This document shows, piece by piece, positions 36,814 through 47,279 of a stretch of 64,000 nt of DNA (position 1 is the stretch's first letter; each line of letters opens with the position of its first letter). The notes under the pieces were generated by a model that searched no databases, had not been told where the DNA came from, and saw only the letters and a list, made by a program, of their open reading frames with translations. Origin of the DNA: Bdellovibrionales bacterium. GTDB lineage: Bacteria; Bdellovibrionota; Bdellovibrionia; Bdellovibrionales; JAGQZY01. The translations under genes and the position numbers were made by a program. The stretch lies in assembly GCA_964230645.1 (NCBI GenBank), contig CAXRHT010000001.1:320001-384000 (forward strand), in the 5' to 3' direction.

Positions 36814-36906
36814 ACTCTTTTTCTCCTTAAAACGAATGCTGCCTACACTATTCATTTTGGACTTTGAAATCAAGGGGATAAAGAGCTAGCGAGTGTGGAT
36901 GAGGGC

Positions 36907-37066
36907 CCGTTCCGCGGCTTTTTCTGTGGGATTTTTTTGGAGTGTTTGCGAGATAGGCACAGCTCCTGCTTTGCTGGCATCGCCCTTTGGGCGAGCGCGT
37001 CCCGCTTGCCAGAGCCATATCTCACAAACACTCCAAAAAAATCCCACAGAAAAAGCCGCGGAACGG
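36907..37066. repeat. 160-bp long palindromic element (49-bp arms, 1 mismatch)
   Basis: 36907-36955 CCGTTCCGCGG...GCGAGATA is the reverse complement of 37018-37066; GC-rich structured core. Confidence 0.92.
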
Positions 37067-37081
37067 TCAAACTTTTGAGCC

Positions 37082-37227
37082 TATTCTTTGTCATTCCTGA
37101 GTGTATTCTTTGCCATTCTGAGCATGCTCCTTGTCATTCTGAGAATAGCGAAGAATCTATCGCCACTGAATTCACGTTATAAATCAAAGCCCTCGGTAAT
37201 AGGTACTTCGCTTCGCTCAGCACGACA
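37082..37227. repeat. REP/MITE-like palindromic element B with a 21-22-bp tandem expansion in one arm
   Basis: Units TATTCTTTGTCATTCCTGAGTG, TATTCTTTGCCATTCTGAGCA, then ..TTGTCATTCTGAGAATAGCGAAGAATCT; partner arm AGGTACTTCGCTTCGCTCAGCACGACA; spacer homologous to element A in reverse orientation. Confidence 0.85.
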
Positions 37228-37273
37228 GCTGCACTCTTCACTACAAAATGGAGTTTATTTTAAAATATATTTT

Positions 37274-37834
37274 TTAAAAGCTGCGGACTTTTACCATGGC
37301 GCGCTTTAGGGAGAGGATTTCTTCTTTTACAGCGTCCATGAAGTTTTGGGCGAATTTTTCGACGTTGGCGATGCCGAAGTCTGTGAGGCTTGAGGTTTCT
37401 ACTGGGGTGCCGTCGTTGGTGATGTTGATTCCGTAGTGGATGAGGGAAGAGGTTGTTGAACAGGTGGCAATACTGATGTTGAGCTTTTTCTTTCCCCAGT
37501 AGACATCGTCACCGTAGCGTTTCAAGGCAATTTCGGTTTTGGTGAGTTTTTGAATTTCTAAAATGAGGATCTCTCCCATCAATCTCTGTAAGGCAATGGC
37601 ACTTGAAAGCGGAAATTGGAAAAGTTCCATTGAGAAGTGGAGCATGCTGTCGGAAGCGATTTTTGAAAGAGCTCTTAAATCCTCTCCATCAATCATATGC
37701 TCAGGGGTGACTTCACAGGCCCCTTGCCAGGCGACCATAGAATCTCCGAGCACGCCGTGCTCTAAATAATTAAAGAGAGGGGCGAGTTGTTTGCCGGTAT
37801 ATTTCATTGTGTTTTCAAGCCATAGAGTGTGCAT
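37274..37834 (-). CDS. DUF366-family protein (BPL/LPL-ligase-like fold, function unknown)
   Basis: Y.G.QL, GDS.V.W.G.C.V, M.D.EDL, I.S..MLHF, R.GDD.Y, KL.ISIAT, IH.GINI...GTPV.T motifs. Confidence 0.82.
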   Translation of the reverse strand: MHTLWLENTMKYTGKQLAPLFNYLEHGVLGDSMVAWQGACEVTPEHMIDGEDLRALSKIASDSMLHFSMELFQFPLSSAIALQRLMGEILILEIQKLTKTEIALKRYGDDVYWGKKKLNISIATCSTTSSLIHYGINITNDGTPVETSSLTDFGIANVEKFAQNFMDAVKEEILSLKRAMVKVRSF

Positions 37835-38613: not shown

Positions 38614-39195
38614 ATGCTTTTAAATGCCAATGGTTTTAAGGAGTTCGTGAAAGCAGCCTTTCGCGACCCCCGCAATGTTTCCACTATTTTTCCAAGCCAG
38701 AAGTTTCTGGCCAAAGCCCTTATCCAACACGCTGGAATCAAAAAGGGAGACCACGTTTTAGAGCTTGGCTGTGGAAGTGGAGCTATTACACGCTACATCA
38801 TGGAAAAGAGAGCTCACATTGGAGAGTACACTGGAGTTGAAATCGACGAGGAGCTTGTCGAATACCTCAAGTACACTTTTAAAGGAGAAAAATTTCTCAA
38901 TGTCTCAGCCGACAAGCTTCATGACCAAATTCCTGATGGCTCCATGGACGTAGTGATCTGCTCTTTACCTTGGACACTTTTTGCTGGAAAACTACAAGAG
39001 GGCATCACCGACGAAATCTACCGAGTGCTAAAGCCCGGCGGACGATTCACGACCTATCTTTGCATTCACTCGCTCACCTATCCTGGCGCTCCACGGGCTA
39101 AAAAGATTTTTAAACGCAATTTCTCGGACTTTCAAAAAAGAGAGTCCATTGCAAGAAACATCCCGCCTGCCAACGTTTATCTTGGAATAAAATAA
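38614..39195 (+). CDS. Class I SAM-dependent methyltransferase, phospholipid N-methyltransferase (PmtA)-like
   Basis: P.....PS..FLA, VLELGCGSGAIT, SLPW, LKPGG.F, NIPPA.VY. Confidence 0.8.
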   Translation: MLLNANGFKEFVKAAFRDPRNVSTIFPSQKFLAKALIQHAGIKKGDHVLELGCGSGAITRYIMEKRAHIGEYTGVEIDEELVEYLKYTFKGEKFLNVSADKLHDQIPDGSMDVVICSLPWTLFAGKLQEGITDEIYRVLKPGGRFTTYLCIHSLTYPGAPRAKKIFKRNFSDFQKRESIARNIPPANVYLGIK

Positions 39196-39206
39196 CAACC
39201 TCGGGT

Positions 39207-42200
39207 TTAAATCGATTTTTCCAAGTACCCGCTCGGAGCATTTAATAAAAAGGCCCCTCGGTAGACCAGAGAGCGATAAAATTTGGAAGGTTCAACATGC
39301 TCTTCTTTGTCGATCACTTCGTAGGCTTCTACCTCTTCTTTTTCACCCCAGTCGTTCACTATCGTAATAGGAACTCTTTTATAGGCCCCGAAACCAAGAG
39401 GTCCGCCTTCAATTTTATCGAGCACTTTCAAGTCATCATTGTTCAGAGTGACCACCACTCCGTAAACCTGATCCCCTTTTGACGGGACGATATCCGCGAC
39501 CCCACCCTGTCTTTTTTCAGAGTAGCGCGTATAGGCCAAGCGATAATCATTGAGGCACCCACGCCCATGAACTCGGGCCGAAGGGCAGCGAGTTTTTATC
39601 TGATTGATATCCATGTTCGACCCAAAACAAAAGATCTTGTTATCTCGATTTATGGTGGGCTCACCAAAGCCTCCGCCACCTGGTGTTTCAATCACCAGCC
39701 GATCCTCTTTTTTTACATCAATTTCAAAACACTCTTCGAGTGACTTTCTCTCTCCCCTCTCTTCAACAAAGTTTCTCCCTGTGTGTCCATCAGAGCCACC
39801 TTTAATACCTCGGGGGGCATAATTTCTACTTTGGGATAAAAAACTCACACTCATATTTTCTAGAAAACGTAGTTTTCGAATAAGACCATTGCCCCCTCGG
39901 TTTTTACCCACTCCACCACTGCCATGGCGAACTCCCATCAATTCAATCAATACAGGGTAGCGATTTTCGAAAATTTCTGGATCTGTGAGAAGGGAGTTTG
40001 TCATATTCACTTGAACACTACTGGCTCCAGGCCCAGAAGCCGTCGCCCCACTTCCCCCGCCTAAGGTTTCATAATATTGATAATTATCTGTCCCAAAGGT
40101 CAAATTGTTCATGGTTCCCTGGGAGTGAGCCTTTATGCCAAAGGCTTCAAACAGAAGGTCACAAAGTGACTGTGAGGTTTCTACATTTCCGGCAACGACG
40201 GCTGCCCCTTTTTTAGGATTTAAAAAACAGTCCTCAGGTAATTTTATTTTAATAGACCGAAACAGTCCGTCGTTGAGAGGAAGGCTTTCCTGCACAAGAC
40301 TTCGTAAGACGAACAAGATAGCCGCTTTTAAAACAGGTTTCGGGGCATTAAAGTTGCTTTCTTGCTGGGGACTAGAACCGGTAAAATCAAATAATATTTT
40401 CTCATTATTTTTTTTAAGGCTCAGACAAATCTTTCTCTCTGGAGCCATCTGCTTTTCAACCTGCTGGTCCTTGAGATCTTTTAATTTTTCCGCTAACTTT
40501 TTTTCAGAATAGGAAAGTATCGATTCAATTTGGTTTTCGATTTTCTCAGTTCCATACTGTTCGGTTAAATCCTTTAATTCGGAAAGACCCTTTTGGTTGG
40601 CCGCAATTTTGGCTTTGATGTCAAAAATATTGGAATCAATATTACGAGTGGGATAAGCCCCCTCTGAGAAAAGCTTTCTCAATTTCTCCTCTTGAAATTG
40701 ACCATCATCAACAAGAACTTGCGGAGAAATAACCACGCCCTCTTCACTGAGTTTTTTACTAAAGGCTGGCATGGAGCCTGGACTCACGCCCCCTATATCA
40801 GCATGGTGCCCGCGGCTAGCGACCCACATAAAGACTTTGCCGTCTCTAAAAAAAGGCGTCACCACTGTCACATCCGGAAGGTGAGTCCCGCCAGCAGTAG
40901 GGTCGTTACAGATATAACTATTGCCAGGTTTTATTTCACACTGATCTCTTACCGCTCGCACGGAGTCCCCCATGGATCCTAAATGTACCGGGATATGAGG
41001 AGCGTTTGAAAGCAACTCCCCTTTTGAGTTAAAAAGAGCACATGAAAAGTCGTTTCTCTCTTTAATGTTTACCGACTGAGCTAACTTTTTGAGGCTCACT
41101 CCCATTTGTTCTGCGATAAATTGGAACCTTTGGTAAAAGAGCTCCATCTCTACGGACTCTATACGCTCTGGCTTAGTTTGATCTGGCTTCCCCTGAAACT
41201 CTAGGAACCATTCCCCCTCTTTATTCTTTTTAGCTTTCCAAGCTTCCTCAACAACGATGGTAGTGTTGTTCTCCTCAATTTTAAAAGGACCCTCTTTGGT
41301 TTGATCAACTTCTACTTCTTCTTCATTTGTTGATTCGGTCTTTTTACCCTCTCCTTTTAGAGAAATGGTCTCACAAAGTATTTCCTCTTCTTGATCAATG
41401 CCAAAAACTACTTTCATATGCTCCCTGAAAGATTCTTCGGCCTCAGTTTTATCCTCGGCTTCAATAGGAACGATATAGTCACTGCCTTTAGAATAAAGAA
41501 AATAAGTTCTGAGCCAATGGGTGACTTCGAAACTAGCTTCTCTTCTAATTTCCTGTTTGAGCTTTTCAAAACCTCTTTCAAAAGGTCCTTTCTTTGAGAG
41601 CGCTTGCACAGCCTCCCCCATCCCATAAGCTGAAAGCACACTTGAAAGAGGATGGATAAAAATAGACTTGATCTTCAACCTCTCTGCCACTCGCGTAGCC
41701 ATTTGGCCTCCCGCCCCTCCAAAGCTAACAAGAGTGTAATCACTTGGATCCTGCCCGCGCTCAATCGAAATTTTACGAATAGCCTTGGCCATCGTTTCAA
41801 CAGCAACATCTAAAAAACCTTCAGCCACTTCCTCAGGCGACACCCCAACCTCTTTTGAGAGCTCGTCAAATTTTTCTTTCACGATCTCTTCATCAAGTCC
41901 CTGGTTTTGATCGGACCCAAAAACTTTAGGAAACTGGTCAGGATTCAAACGACCTAAAAACAAATTGGCATCTGTAACCGTCAGTGGACCTCCTTGCCTA
42001 TAGCAGGCCGGTCCTGGATTGGCTCCTGCAGACTCAGGTCCTACTAAAAAACGAGAACCATCATATTTTAAAATCGATCCTCCACCTGCGGCCACAGTAT
42101 GAATATCCACCATAGGGCTTAAAAAATTAAATCCATGAAAATTAGCACGATGCTCAAGATTTATGGCTCCATTACAAAGAGCCACATCTGTACTTGTTCC

Positions 42201-43040
42201 ACCCATATCAAAAGTAATAATTTTATTTATCCCTCGCTTTTGAGCCGCCCGCAAAGCTCCCACAAGCCCTCCAGCAGGGCCAGAAAGAAGAGAGTTGTAG
42301 CCTTTGAGTTCCTCTGAAAAACAGAGATCCCCACTGGACTGCATATAAAGAAATTCATCCACATCAATTTTCGACTCAAGGTCTTCGGTGTACTGCTTCA
42401 AAAAAGGTGTGAGATTAGCATCGATAACAGAAGTCTCTGTTCTCATGATATAACGATTCTCCGGACTCACTCGGTGAGAAAGACTGATGTAATCAAACCC
42501 CAAATCCTTGGCAACTCTCTCAACAAGCAACTCGTGATCAGGAAACTTATTAGCATGCATAAAACTCACAGCAACAGATGAGATTCCTTTCTCAAGAATC
42601 CGCTCTAGTTCAAAACGAACAAGATCTTCATCAAGAGCTTTAATCACTTCCCCTTGAGCATTCACCCTTTCTTCTAGATGCGAGACCCAAGTATAAAGAG
42701 GCTTCTTTTTCTGAATATCCAACTCAAACAAATCCGGCCGATTCTGCTGCCGAATCTCCAAAACATCTTGCTGACCAAGGCTTGTCAGCAGCGCACAAGG
42801 CACTCCTTTTTTCTCTAAAAAAGCATTGGTTGCCACAGTGGTTCCAAGCCGAATAGAAGAAACCACATTCTTTAACTCCGAAGTCCCTGTCAGCTCAACA
42901 AGCCCCTGATAAACCGCTGACTCATAATGAGGAGAATGAGAAAGAAGCTTATGAACCTTCCTTTCCCCCGTTGGAGAAATCCCAACAATATCAGTAAACG
43001 TACCCCCACAATCAATCCAAAATACCCATTTTTTATCCAT
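39207..43040 (-). CDS. oplA: ATP-dependent 5-oxoprolinase (fused hydantoinase A+B) with C-terminal gamma-glutamylcyclotransferase domain
   Basis: IDCGGTFTD, SGPAGG, DMGGTSTDV, HTVAAGGGS, NIKERNDFSCA, NAPHIPVHLGSM, GGTHLPD, HHADIGG..PGS, TPGGGGFG; then FCFGSNM...GGVADI...VYGVV...LDKIEG...PS..Y. Confidence 0.93.
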   Translation of the reverse strand: MDKKWVFWIDCGGTFTDIVGISPTGERKVHKLLSHSPHYESAVYQGLVELTGTSELKNVVSSIRLGTTVATNAFLEKKGVPCALLTSLGQQDVLEIRQQNRPDLFELDIQKKKPLYTWVSHLEERVNAQGEVIKALDEDLVRFELERILEKGISSVAVSFMHANKFPDHELLVERVAKDLGFDYISLSHRVSPENRYIMRTETSVIDANLTPFLKQYTEDLESKIDVDEFLYMQSSGDLCFSEELKGYNSLLSGPAGGLVGALRAAQKRGINKIITFDMGGTSTDVALCNGAINLEHRANFHGFNFLSPMVDIHTVAAGGGSILKYDGSRFLVGPESAGANPGPACYRQGGPLTVTDANLFLGRLNPDQFPKVFGSDQNQGLDEEIVKEKFDELSKEVGVSPEEVAEGFLDVAVETMAKAIRKISIERGQDPSDYTLVSFGGAGGQMATRVAERLKIKSIFIHPLSSVLSAYGMGEAVQALSKKGPFERGFEKLKQEIRREASFEVTHWLRTYFLYSKGSDYIVPIEAEDKTEAEESFREHMKVVFGIDQEEEILCETISLKGEGKKTESTNEEEVEVDQTKEGPFKIEENNTTIVVEEAWKAKKNKEGEWFLEFQGKPDQTKPERIESVEMELFYQRFQFIAEQMGVSLKKLAQSVNIKERNDFSCALFNSKGELLSNAPHIPVHLGSMGDSVRAVRDQCEIKPGNSYICNDPTAGGTHLPDVTVVTPFFRDGKVFMWVASRGHHADIGGVSPGSMPAFSKKLSEEGVVISPQVLVDDGQFQEEKLRKLFSEGAYPTRNIDSNIFDIKAKIAANQKGLSELKDLTEQYGTEKIENQIESILSYSEKKLAEKLKDLKDQQVEKQMAPERKICLSLKKNNEKILFDFTGSSPQQESNFNAPKPVLKAAILFVLRSLVQESLPLNDGLFRSIKIKLPEDCFLNPKKGAAVVAGNVETSQSLCDLLFEAFGIKAHSQGTMNNLTFGTDNYQYYETLGGGSGATASGPGASSVQVNMTNSLLTDPEIFENRYPVLIELMGVRHGSGGVGKNRGGNGLIRKLRFLENMSVSFLSQSRNYAPRGIKGGSDGHTGRNFVEERGERKSLEECFEIDVKKEDRLVIETPGGGGFGEPTINRDNKIFCFGSNMDINQIKTRCPSARVHGRGCLNDYRLAYTRYSEKRQGGVADIVPSKGDQVYGVVVTLNNDDLKVLDKIEGGPLGFGAYKRVPITIVNDWGEKEEVEAYEVIDKEEHVEPSKFYRSLVYRGAFLLNAPSGYLEKSI

Positions 43041-43286
43041 AACTTTTTATAACGAACAACAAGAAACAAATCAAAACAAGCTAACCGCAAAGTTGTGAAG
43101 AATTTTACAAAATATCCCTTATCTCTCTTGAAAGCCTCAACCAATCGACAAATACGCATAAGGAAAAATGTTTCTGGAGAATTACTTTTCTAGAAAGAGT
43201 CTTTAAACAGTTACTATAAAGGAATCTTTGTTAAGAATTCACTTAAGATTAGGACATTGTGATTTATTGAAAAAAAAGAACTTCAA

Positions 43287-43460
43287 CGCCTTTCGCGTTT
43301 TCTCTTTGAAATTTGGATCGCATGAGACGGAGGCTCGAGCAGCGAGCGCTGCGTATCTCGGGCTGCGCAATGAAATTGCGCGGTCCGGGAGACGAAGTGC
43401 ACCCGAGTGCGTGCCTCCGGCCCATGCGCTCCAAATTTCAAAGAGAAAACGCGAAAGGCG
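43287..43460. repeat. 174-bp rod-like palindromic element
   Basis: 31-bp perfect terminal IR CGCCTTTCGCGTTTTCTCTTTGAAATTTGGA extending imperfectly to ~50 bp; the core also pairs around a GAA loop. Confidence 0.92.
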
Positions 43461-43495
43461 CCCCCGAGCGTCTTTCCCACTAAATCCAAATCTTG

Positions 43496-45460
43496 TTAAA
43501 TTTCCTTAGCCAATCGACGAAGATCTTCTTCTGGTGGCGTAAGTCCATACTCCGCCCCCAAATAGCTTTCCATAAACCGAGAGATTTCCTGTTTCTTCTC
43601 AGGATACTCCCTTTGAGCACGAAGTAAGAAATCCCGTGGCCCTTCAAAGCTCTCTTTCTCAATTCCCTTTTTAGAAAGCCGATCACGCAAGAGAAAATAG
43701 GATTTCTGAGCAGAAGAGAGCTTCACTTCATTGCGCCGATTGCGATGACGAATCCACAAATAAAAGACCAATAGAATTAAGAGAGTCAAATAAACCAATA
43801 ATTTTTGATTAAGACCTTGAAGTCCCATTCGCTCAAAAAAGTCTCTTTGCCCTTGACGATCGTAGTTTAGTAAAAAGAGATTCCAACGAGTGGCAATGGC
43901 ATCAACAGCGAGGGCTGCTCTTTTGATAAAACCATCATTGAGTCCATCAAGAAAGCCTTCTCTACCCGCTTCGGCCAGCTCGCTTTCACTTAAAGAGTGA
44001 AAAACAGCTCCCCCAAGCTCCATTCTTAAAGGAGCCACCATAACTGTAGGGTCAAATCGAAGCCAACGATTTTTCTGATCCGACCAAATTTCCGTCCAAG
44101 CGTGTGCGTCTCGACTGGTGACAAGATAAAAGTTACTCATGGGGTTTTTCTGCCCCCCTTGAAACCCCACGACCACCCGGGAGGGCACCTTAGCTAGACG
44201 CATAAGGGCTGCGAAACTCACAGCAAAGTGTTCACAGAAACCCACTTTTTTCTCAAAGAGAAACTCACCGAGCTTCTCAGTTTCCATGGCTCCCGGACTG
44301 AGCGTATAGCGAAACTGTCTTTGGTAAAAAGTCATCAGTTTATTGGCTTTTTCTTCATTGTTCCATTCCGCCCTATTAAAGCTGGCGACAAGATCTAAAA
44401 CTCTTTGGTCGGTTTCTTCTGGAGCTTGTAAATATTTGTCTCGATCACTCTCACTTAACAAACTTTGACCTTCAGGAGAGGAAAACACTCGGTAGACAAT
44501 TTTTTTATTCTGCTCTTTTAAAAGTCGAAAAGTTTCGCCCTCGACTTTCTTGGTTTTTCTTTGCAAAAAAGGACTATTGTGAACAACTCGAAGGGGACGA
44601 TCAAGACCAAAAAGCCATTTTTCAAAGAAAGGCTCTAGCAGAATTTCTTGCTCAAATCTCTTGGTTTTTTCCGAAATCGAATCGTTTTGGATCGGTTCGA
44701 TCCTCCCCTTTTCCCAGCGCATTCCGCTGTTGACGGTGAGCACACCTCCGCGCCAATATAGATCCATTCTTGATGGTTCTTTGACTGGAAATGTCACTCG
44801 AAAAGCTTCTTGATCTTGCTGAATGAGTTCTGAAAAGCTCCCAGGCTTCATAGTGTCACTAAAACCGTTAAGTTGGCTCTGCTTCCTGGCTCCTCCGATA
44901 AAACCCGTTGAGAAACGTGGAAAAACAAAAAATAGAAGAATCATAAACGGCGCAATTTGAAAGAAGAGTTTAAACCCCGTTTTCAACAATAGTTGTGGAT
45001 CAAAGCGCACCTGTGAGCCGTTATGAAGTTGCACTAAAAGTGCGGTAGTAATCACCAGGTCAAACAATGCGAAAATCGTCATCCCAAGTGACTGTGATTC
45101 AAAGAAGCGCGCGAGCAGCAGCATGAAATTTAAGAACAAAAGCACCATTGCATCGCGATATCCGACTCGGTCGATAAGTTTTAACGAGACCGCACAAATC
45201 AAAAGGGCCGAACCCGCTTCAAGACCTAAAATCTGCCCGTAGTTTTGATAGACTAAAAAGGATAATGTAAAGACAAGCCCCAACTTGGTGAACCAATTAG
45301 GTAGTGGCACGTATTGAAATTCATAGAGAAGTCGCCAGAGAAGGCATATCCCACCCACAGCCAAAGTGGGAACTGTATAAGTGGTAAAATGAGGAATAAG
45401 ATTTAGAGCTACCAAAAAAATAAGACTTAAATGAAAAAAGCGATTCGGAGCTGGGGTCAT
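43496..45460 (-). CDS. Transglutaminase-like membrane protein (TgpA type: DUF3488 + transglutaminase core)
   Basis: Multiple TM helices, LF..FPR, LYWRG, GFCEHFA (Cys), HAWTE (His), FDPT (Asp); ATG at 45460 overlaps the upstream stop (ATGA). Confidence 0.92.
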   Translation of the reverse strand: MTPAPNRFFHLSLIFLVALNLIPHFTTYTVPTLAVGGICLLWRLLYEFQYVPLPNWFTKLGLVFTLSFLVYQNYGQILGLEAGSALLICAVSLKLIDRVGYRDAMVLLFLNFMLLLARFFESQSLGMTIFALFDLVITTALLVQLHNGSQVRFDPQLLLKTGFKLFFQIAPFMILLFFVFPRFSTGFIGGARKQSQLNGFSDTMKPGSFSELIQQDQEAFRVTFPVKEPSRMDLYWRGGVLTVNSGMRWEKGRIEPIQNDSISEKTKRFEQEILLEPFFEKWLFGLDRPLRVVHNSPFLQRKTKKVEGETFRLLKEQNKKIVYRVFSSPEGQSLLSESDRDKYLQAPEETDQRVLDLVASFNRAEWNNEEKANKLMTFYQRQFRYTLSPGAMETEKLGEFLFEKKVGFCEHFAVSFAALMRLAKVPSRVVVGFQGGQKNPMSNFYLVTSRDAHAWTEIWSDQKNRWLRFDPTVMVAPLRMELGGAVFHSLSESELAEAGREGFLDGLNDGFIKRAALAVDAIATRWNLFLLNYDRQGQRDFFERMGLQGLNQKLLVYLTLLILLVFYLWIRHRNRRNEVKLSSAQKSYFLLRDRLSKKGIEKESFEGPRDFLLRAQREYPEKKQEISRFMESYLGAEYGLTPPEEDLRRLAKEI

Positions 45461-46350
45461 TCCACCACCCTTTGCTGAGCTAAGACTTTTAAGCATTCTG
45501 TTTTATGTTGAGGACCGTGGCTCGCAGCAACCCTCTTACCGCGGATGTTCATAGCATACGAGATATTTTCGTCATGACACTCATGAATCCATTTTGACAT
45601 TTGCCTCAAGCGAATCTCTTCATCCCCTTTGGCTTGTGAATAGTCGACAAGAAAAGTCTGCCTTTCGCCCTCTTCAAACTTTTTCGCTAATAGTGGTCGC
45701 CCCCTTGCAAAAGCCTTCCAGTCAATATGCCTGTGAGAGTCTCCCCATTCATATTTCTTGTGCTCTGAGAAATCATCTCCGTTATTTTTTTGCACCACAC
45801 CCTCATCCTGCCCCTCAGGCTGAAATTCGGAAATCGACTGATTTCCCCTTGGTGCGGGATAGATATAGTAGGTTTCATCGACCTTAAAATGGCGCCAAAC
45901 ATAGAAAAAACCAAAGGGATACCGAGTTGAAATAGATATCTTATCAATTTTTTTCTTACCCCAAGTTGAGGTCTTAAAGTCAAAGTATTGCGGGTGGAGG
46001 GACTTTTTATAGATAATCTCTATAGGAAAATCGATTTTATCCCCATTCATTTCGGCTTGTACCCGCAACTGAGAATGACCTTCTGTATTCTCACTTTTTA
46101 GCCACAAAACTCCGTGACCCGTGGATTCGCTGGCAGAAAGAAAAAGTTTAATCTTTTCTAATTTTATATTTTTTAAATTCGAGTGAGTTTGAACCATTCC
46201 TATAAGGAACAGGGCCACCAAAAAAAAGCATAAGATAAAAGCAAGGTTATTGTTGTAAACAGCCCCGCCTACAAGACTTACAAAAATACCCGCTCCATAC
46301 ATAAAGCCGTATTCTGTTGGTACAATGTAAATCTTTTCACGCTTTCTCAT
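45457..46350 (-). CDS. DUF58-domain protein
   Basis: IYI.PT..G, YNNNL, T.YPFG.F, Y..GD..RHIDWKA.AR motifs. Confidence 0.92.
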   Translation of the reverse strand: MRKREKIYIVPTEYGFMYGAGIFVSLVGGAVYNNNLAFILCFFLVALFLIGMVQTHSNLKNIKLEKIKLFLSASESTGHGVLWLKSENTEGHSQLRVQAEMNGDKIDFPIEIIYKKSLHPQYFDFKTSTWGKKKIDKISISTRYPFGFFYVWRHFKVDETYYIYPAPRGNQSISEFQPEGQDEGVVQKNNGDDFSEHKKYEWGDSHRHIDWKAFARGRPLLAKKFEEGERQTFLVDYSQAKGDEEIRLRQMSKWIHECHDENISYAMNIRGKRVAASHGPQHKTECLKVLAQQRVVE

Positions 46351-47279
46351 GGGATCGGTACGGAATGAATGATTTCCTGAGCTAATTGATGGGTGCTTTT
46401 TTCACCGAGATCTTCATGACTTCTTAAGCGATGATTCATTACCGCAACACCTACAGCTTGATAATCCTCGGGGATGACGAAATTTCGTCCTTCGATAAAT
46501 GCGTGGGCCTTGGCGGCTTTATTAAAATCTCTCGCTCCACGTGGTGAAAGTCCCCAGGAAAGTGTTCGGCTTTTTTCAACAATGTCTTGTAGATAGTCTA
46601 ATGAGGAATCTGACACCGTTACTAGATCGATCTGCTCAATCATTTCAATCAAATCCTGCGGAGTCATCACGGGCTTAAGCTCTTTGATCCAAAGATTGCG
46701 ATCACGCCCTCTTAAAATCCCTTTTTCGGCTTCGCGGCTAGGAAAACCCAATTCCAAACGCATTAGGAAGCGATCCAATTGCGATTCTGGCAGAGGAAAG
46801 GTTCCGATACTTTCCTGAGGATTTTGTGTGGCTATAAGGAAAAAGGGTCTGGGAAGCTCGTAAACGTGCCCATCCATAGTCACCTGTTTTTCTTCCATAG
46901 CTTGCAGGCAAGCACTTTGTGTTTTTGGGGTGGCCCGGTTGATTTCATCGGCAAGCACGAAGTTTGAAAACAAAGGACCTTTGTGAAAATTAAAGGTCTG
47001 GGAGTTTTTATTGAAAATCGGTGTTCCTAAAATATCGGCTGGAAGAAGATCATTGGTAAATTGAATTCTTTGCTCTTCAAGACCTAAGAGTTTGGAAATA
47101 GTTTTTACTAAACTCGTCTTTCCCATTCCAGGGCGGTCTTCCAATATAAAATGGCCGCCGGCTAGTAAACAGGTCACACACAATTTGACTGTTTGTTTTT
47201 TATCGACGATGACTTCGTCGATTTGATTGACAAGTTCTTGAATTTTTTTTGCAGAGCTTGAAGCGTCAATTTTTTCCAT
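46347..47279 (-). CDS. moxR: MoxR-family AAA+ ATPase
   Basis: ED.PGMGKT, RIQFTNDLLPADI.G, DEINRA.PKTQSA, ATQNP, LPESQLDRF. Confidence 0.95.
   Translation of the reverse strand: MEKIDASSSAKKIQELVNQIDEVIVDKKQTVKLCVTCLLAGGHFILEDRPGMGKTSLVKTISKLLGLEEQRIQFTNDLLPADILGTPIFNKNSQTFNFHKGPLFSNFVLADEINRATPKTQSACLQAMEEKQVTMDGHVYELPRPFFLIATQNPQESIGTFPLPESQLDRFLMRLELGFPSREAEKGILRGRDRNLWIKELKPVMTPQDLIEMIEQIDLVTVSDSSLDYLQDIVEKSRTLSWGLSPRGARDFNKAAKAHAFIEGRNFVIPEDYQAVGVAVMNHRLRSHEDLGEKSTHQLAQEIIHSVPIP

Follow-up and report, generated by a model that had tools for sequence, protein, structure and literature searches.

We analysed a window of 64,000 nucleotides from a Bdellovibrionales bacterium (GCA_964230645.1, contig CAXRHT010000001.1, positions 320,001 to 384,000). 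Its gene at 39207-43040, on the reverse strand, encodes a 1277-residue protein (P0001) that joins a single-chain 5-oxoprolinase-type enzyme to a C-terminal domain of the γ-glutamylcyclotransferase (GGCT) type. The fusion is a real single protein, and it is probably a two-step γ-glutamyl salvage enzyme with docked domains. In animals, the cyclotransferase and the oxoprolinase are separate proteins that act consecutively. The two reactions follow one another in the γ-glutamyl cycle (PMC4538363).

The open reading frame runs through all 1277 residues without an internal stop. The oxoprolinase end motif ETPGGGGFG (39689-39663) is followed by a nine-residue linker, EPTINRDNK (39636-39662, reverse strand), and the tail then begins at I1136 (39635) and extends for 142 residues. 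None of the linker codons is ATG, GTG or TTG, and the earliest ATG encodes M1143, downstream of the FGSN motif. An earlier interpretation made from the letters of the DNA (the sequence-only reading) had proposed just such a one-frame fusion, with no start codon between the oxoprolinase end and FGSN, and the translation agrees with it on both counts. Read support at the junction agrees as well: contigs from runs X1 and X3 (possible sources of the window DNA), X4 (the same study) and X5 (a second study) all span it without an indel. The X5 evidence is a single 151-base contig over 39554-39704, and both of its differences from the window are synonymous. A sequencing error or recent read-through at the junction is ruled out by the intact contigs of these four runs and by the existence of 32 fused proteins. 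Three of the listed runs are candidates for the source of the window DNA. Every run containing window DNA for which a habitat is given is a marine metagenome, and no RNA dataset is among the listed runs; a search of 42900-43700 for a promoter-like site found none. GC content at third codon positions is 0.48 in the tail and 0.38 in the body. We do not claim a domain swap from this difference: the tail tree retains the P0001 tail within the fused clade.

Three Pfam domains, all in one chain and on the reverse strand, make up the body: Hydant_A_N (residues 7-180; 42501-43022) with the phosphate-1 motif (D10), Hydantoinase_A (residues 200-477; 41610-42443) with the phosphate-2 motif (D278) and the adenosine motif, and Hydantoinase_B (residues 629-1128; 39657-41156) with the metal ligands D664, H720, D723 and H745. 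These six residues are invariant in 15/15 fused proteins and align with six residues of caprolactamase that cannot be mutated without loss of activity, CapA D11 being required for it (PMC8453981). With the three domains present and the ATP-site and metal residues intact, the oxoprolinase-type identity first proposed for the body is supported. Its named homologues, at ~50% identity, are annotated as 5-oxoprolinase or hydantoinase B/oxoprolinase, while scores against the NCBIfam caprolactamase and acetophenone carboxylase models fall far under the cut-off (311.6 of 1000 bits and lower). Since the homologues are annotated in this way and the other enzymes score so low, the body is likely an ATP-dependent enzyme of the 5-oxoprolinase type, converting 5-oxoproline to glutamate.

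In its A-then-B chain, its ATP and metal motifs and its identity to annotated bacterial proteins, P0001 resembles the eukaryote-type single-chain 5-oxoprolinases (OPLAH/OXP1), a type that PMC13274462 cites as occurring in 115 of 984 prokaryote genomes. It differs from them in having a body of ~1130 residues (~1180-1260 in the outgroup), no PF19278 match, a surface patch peculiar to its clade and the added GGCT tail. Among solved structures, N-methylhydantoinase comes closest (PDB code 9h03; template modelling (TM) score 0.81, 25% identity). This enzyme (also 7hk5) and caprolactamase CapAB (6yra) share the whole-chain fold and the catalytic residues, but they are only 22-26% identical to the body, have other substrates and carry no GGCT domain. 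None of the solved structures matched was a true 5-oxoprolinase chain. The middle region (residues 480-620 of P0001) is shorter across the whole clade, including its tail-less members, and lacks the PF19278 match of most outgroup oxoprolinases. In another member of the genus, whose genome is complete, an oxoprolinase gene is represented only by short, stop-containing pieces (L005 and L013, G012:C2:79709-80288), likely a decayed copy.

The tail (residues 1136-1277; 39210-39635, reverse strand) scores above the cut-off for both GGACT (PF06094, residues 1136-1244, 37.5 bits against 22.8) and AIG2_2 (PF13772, residues 1191-1274, 33.5 bits against 27), and the Pfam scan of P0001 gave no match to the ChaC family PF04752. 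Human GGCT (C7orf24; PDB codes 2pn7, 2i5t, 2rbh and 3cry) heads its PDB matches in a sequence search (E 1.3e-11) and is also its best fold match in a Foldseek comparison of the AlphaFold model (root mean square deviation 2.0 over 149 columns, E 2e-11, ~30% identity). GGACT (A2LD1; 3juc) and ChaC (6k95, 5hwi) have the same fold and catalytic Glu, and their matches are much weaker (E 5e-3 for GGACT and 2e-4 for ChaC2). Residue E1211 (39408-39410) aligns with Glu98 of human GGCT, the acid/base residue (PMC7022552), in a column that is altered in PDB entries 3cry and 2rbh. Y1220, Y1240 and Y1255 align with Tyr105, Tyr125 and Tyr139, as numbered by counting along the PDB sequence alignment. These four residues and the loop G1140-S1141-N1142 are present in 34/34 fused tails (36 were aligned and P0121 and P0040 set aside), a set that we compared with 134 free domains. 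The tail departs from human GGCT in being the C-terminal domain of a 1277-residue protein, in having Phe in place of Tyr22 and in bearing extra surface aromatics on its last helices. Taken together, alignment and model point to a γ-glutamylcyclotransferase-type domain, closest to human GGCT, that likely cuts γ-glutamyl compounds to 5-oxoproline. The sequence-only reading had already seen a GGCT/AIG2-like domain here, with the catalytic Glu in the LDKIEG region, and both the Pfam scores and the human GGCT match confirm it.

Other proteins related to the tail were seen in passing. The genome has a second GGACT-family gene (L106, G000:C2:1874219-1874593, reverse strand) which by eye lacks the catalytic Glu and has a C-terminal extension. 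Bdellovibrionota also carry a free GGCT-like protein of ~220 residues that has a YGAN loop and is extended at its C-terminus (L017, L027-L030), and the 398-residue protein P0100 joins a HEPN_AbiV domain to a GGCT-type domain.

The fusion recurs in a small family. A search with the tail alone gave 15 matches among 251 candidates, every one with the fused architecture. When 7997 candidates were scored against the metal domain and the best 120 listed, the fused architecture was confined to the top 36, with 29 of these carrying it and the other 84 lacking it. P0121 and P0141 came in addition from the best 150 matches of a profile search that covered 1.84 billion representatives. In all there are at least 43 long fused sequences, 32 of them distinct after removal of 11 from the same 90% clusters. 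The named carriers (Halobacteriovoraceae, Bacteriovoracaceae, Halobacteriovorax and Pseudobacteriovorax antillogorgiicola, the last a cultured carrier with record WP_132322318.1) are all Bdellovibrionota-type, and many members are nameless; public records label the fused proteins just 5-oxoprolinase or hydantoinase B/oxoprolinase. The architecture is rare, being present in 4/401 sampled genomes of the phylum and in 10/237 genomes of the family with most carriers.

In a body tree of 113 rows, from which P0188, P0213 and rows lacking the end motif were left out, a single clade with a support of 100 unites 30 fused proteins with 5 tail-less ones. The tail tree is poorly resolved and has a similar order. 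This pattern fits one origin followed by two or three losses of the tail; no tail remnants were found 3' of the tail-less genes. P0121 (1366 residues, ENA only) stands alone on a long branch and lacks the docking residues described below, and it may represent a second, independent origin of the fusion. A search with its tail found only P0121 itself, and scanning metagenomes with P0141 gave no match. Averaged over 465 pairs, identity is 56% for the tail and 54% for the body. Among nine genes, amino-acid identity is 59.4% in the tail and 59.6% in the body, while identical residues are encoded by different codons in more than half of cases and silent sites are largely saturated. The fusion is conserved and under selection in tail and body alike.

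The tail is likely docked at a fixed place against the ATP-binding and metal domains, either of its own chain or across a dimer. We infer this because a patch on the body comes and goes with the tail and because the tail is rigidly placed in the AlphaFold model. The fused bodies share 538 conserved positions, and at 21 of these at least four of the five tail-less descendants differ. The putative docking surface includes a helix, confident in the model, formed by residues 138-150 (42591-42629, reverse strand), together with L88 (42777-42779). We counted its residues in 31 fused proteins (P0121 excluded), 5 tail-less proteins and 50 of the 79 outgroup rows. F143 and L88 are each present in 31/31 fused, 0/5 tail-less and 0/50 outgroup proteins; the corresponding counts are 31/31, 1/5 and 9/50 for E144 and 31/31, 0/5 and 5/50 for R147. 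L1034 of the metal domain (39939-39941) behaves similarly (28/31, 0/5 and 0/50). On the tail side, aromatic residues at 1257, 1260 and 1264 occur in 33, 33 and 30 of the 34 fused tails and in 1, 2 and 2 of the 134 free domains, a difference that could reflect mere ancestry. PGGGG and the GSN motif lie 14 residues apart in 31/36 proteins and 13-15 apart in 35/36 (one row was mis-parsed). The AlphaFold model of residues 622-1277 has a predicted local distance difference test (pLDDT) of 93 and a predicted TM score (pTM) of 0.91, compared with the 0.76-0.77 that we roughly estimate for a loose tail. The pTM of 0.90 for residues 78-1277 does not discriminate, because the tail is just 12% of that model.

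In the proposed mechanism, γ-Glu-amino acids would reach the enzyme from outside the cell. The tail would act first and release a free amino acid and 5-oxoproline; one ATP would then be spent by the body in opening the 5-oxoproline ring to give glutamate. Docking would place the production of 5-oxoproline beside the enzyme that removes it, giving proximity and not a proven tunnel. The chemical fit of the two steps and the covariation count for more in this reading than the mere presence of a fusion. The external source is suggested by the gene content of the genome, which is 99.6% complete. It encodes a γ-glutamyltranspeptidase (GGT) whose N-terminus is signal-peptide-like by eye, while the queries used detected no pxpA, ChaC, gshA or gshB N-domain in it; the gshB ATP-domain model gave just weak matches. 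Two other fusion carriers do have gshA and gshB. Glutathione-derived substrates, as initially envisaged, could therefore hardly come from the cell's own glutathione: with no synthesis genes found by three family queries, the glutathione would have to be foreign. pxpA occurs in 7/237 genomes of the family and in 0/19 of those with the single-chain enzyme, numbers too small to be meaningful.

Several observations weigh against this interpretation. The annotation of the homologues is automatic, and the comparison set included neither a characterised 5-oxoprolinase nor a characterised bacterial member of the GGCT subfamily. The loop Tyr (human Tyr22) is Phe in P0001 and in 25/34 fused tails, compared with 3/134 free domains. 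The tail is dispensable, being absent from 4/14 clade members in the 237 genomes of the family, and AIG2_2 was not found elsewhere in those four genomes by a model whose control matched just 2/14 genomes. GGT shows no enrichment in fusion-bearing genomes (8/10, compared with 178/237 overall), and conserved neighbours give no clue to the substrate, the most shared small family occurring in 3/9 loci. As for docking, five control sets gave 2-12 positions of the kind counted above, so part of the 21 is ordinary divergence; the five tail-less proteins amount to only two or three independent losses; P0001 itself is the sole exception at W1257, where it has Ser; and the site was located by covariation, with no contact seen directly.

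How far the tail's substrate can be read from its resemblance to human GGCT is the first matter on which other explanations turn. GGCT-fold enzymes have the Glu and loop motif in common and differ in substrate by features near the pocket, GGACT and ChaC acting on γ-Glu-amines or glutathione (PMC7022552). Given the ~30% identity and the loop Tyr to Phe change, both halves might be active with the tail acting on γ-Glu-amines (γ-Glu-ε-Lys or γ-Glu-polyamines), glutathione or a special γ-glutamylated metabolite. We find this quite unlikely: in fold and sequence the tail is far nearer GGCT than GGACT or ChaC2, it has no ChaC family match, and the transglutaminase neighbour discussed below is incidental. 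Doubt could also be directed at the body. Its Pfam families span hydantoinases, caprolactamase and carboxylases, its closest solved relative is the N-methylhydantoinase, and the clade lacks the PF19278 match carried by most outgroup proteins, all of which would suit an ATP-dependent lactamase or hydantoinase for some other ring compound, with the tail as a binding or structural domain. The poor NCBIfam scores, the much higher identity to annotated 5-oxoprolinases than to solved enzymes and the invariant catalytic Glu, unexpected in a purely structural tail, make that very unlikely. A different question is whether docking does more than bring the domains together. In the scheme proposed for caprolactamase and oxoprolinase, the A half phosphorylates the lactam, which then passes via a tunnel to the metal site and is hydrolysed in the B half (PMC8453981). 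The ATP-binding half, the proposed side of phosphorylation, carries the fusion-specific patch, the linker length is fixed and the model places the tail rigidly; the docked tail could pass 5-oxoproline straight to the ATP site or switch the ATPase, making a coupled ATP-driven γ-glutamyl hydrolase. Against this, the body persists after loss of the tail, neither a tunnel nor a contact is seen, and there is little need for channelling because 5-oxoproline is stable and just mildly toxic in yeast (PMC13398684); we regard it as distinctly unlikely. A broader picture, in which a one-chain metabolon with a co-evolved patch passes 5-oxoproline directly or gates the ATPase and so enables marine bacteria of predatory type to strip glutamate from prey-derived γ-glutamyl compounds, seems to us conceivable, if unlikely.

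The remaining alternative concerns the neighbourhood. The moxR-DUF58-tgpA operon (43496-47279), which is transglutaminase-like, lies upstream of the fusion gene on the same strand, and the fusion might be its downstream partner, clearing γ-Glu-Lys cross-links. The operon had been described as immediately upstream; strand and side are right, but 455 bases separate tgpA from the fusion gene, and this gap contains a palindromic repeat (43287-43460) that is not part of the enzyme. tgpA is a genus-wide neighbour outside the enzyme system, present in 13/13 genomes of the genus, whereas the fusion is in 1/13. In the 12 relatives, tgpA lies directly beside a methyltransferase and queC in five and beside queC in three (8/12 together); one has other genes at the spot, two have a different order and one reaches a contig end. 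None of the neighbours in the window recurs at nine other fusion loci, and homologues of tgpA, DUF58 and moxR are found in 0/9. P0001 nests among Bacteriovoracaceae-type proteins, yet the genomes are related at the phylum level only, and a clade of the 12 Bacteriovoracaceae-type rows excluding P0001 is rejected (approximately unbiased test, p-AU 0.004; a quick tree of 22 rows). The fusion gene is a recent lateral insertion behind tgpA, at a site that is empty in relatives and from a donor that was likely Bacteriovoracaceae-type, and its adjacency to the transglutaminase is a matter of chance. A partnership with the operon is hardly credible, and so is its companion suggestion, that the join is a sequencing error, the junction being intact in four runs and 32 proteins. 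The analysis supports the sequence-only reading on the identity of the domains, the catalytic residues of both halves and the conserved fusion. Its functional link to the transglutaminase operon does not survive a recent insertion beside a genus-wide operon, and with that link gone and the tail like GGCT rather than GGACT, γ-Glu-Lys loses its place as favoured substrate. The best explanation of the gene's distribution is a self-contained accessory unit moving between marine Bdellovibrionota.

The repeat at 43287-43460 is a near-perfect 175-base palindrome predicted to form a very stable hairpin (fold z -10.2), and the genome contains related sequence in 25 further places; we take it to be like a repetitive extragenic palindrome (REP) or a miniature inverted-repeat transposable element (MITE). 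Unrelated genes have entered the tgpA/methyltransferase junction (39195-43496 in the window; 5100-8460 in L092) in two or more genomes of the genus, making it an insertion hot spot. Elsewhere in the window, the intergenic region 36860-37280, between an aldolase-like gene and DUF366, contains an inverted repeat together with two more multi-copy repeats; matches in the genome number in the dozens.

Among known proteins, the allophanate hydrolase of Kluyveromyces lactis (4iss) is also an amidohydrolase with a GGCT-fold domain, to which the fold match is weak (E 7e-3). Its N-terminal enzyme differs from that of P0001, and its GGCT-fold part has other chemistry. Our literature search, with most subscription papers outside its scope, found no description of an oxoprolinase-GGCT fusion, in line with the initial impression that no such fusion had been characterised. 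The fusion is apparently undescribed, then, although both enzymes are known, and it bears signs of a dedicated interface. With both enzymes known and the family small, the reach of the finding is modest. It nevertheless offers a test case for the coupling of the two steps, with tail-less descendants as natural controls and named interface residues. A structure of the fused protein would serve the 5-oxoprolinase family too, because no true chain of that kind turned up among solved structures. For the bacteria themselves, the fusion ties a bacterial GGCT subfamily to 5-oxoproline metabolism and supports the idea that a degradative arm of the γ-glutamyl cycle operates in some of them.

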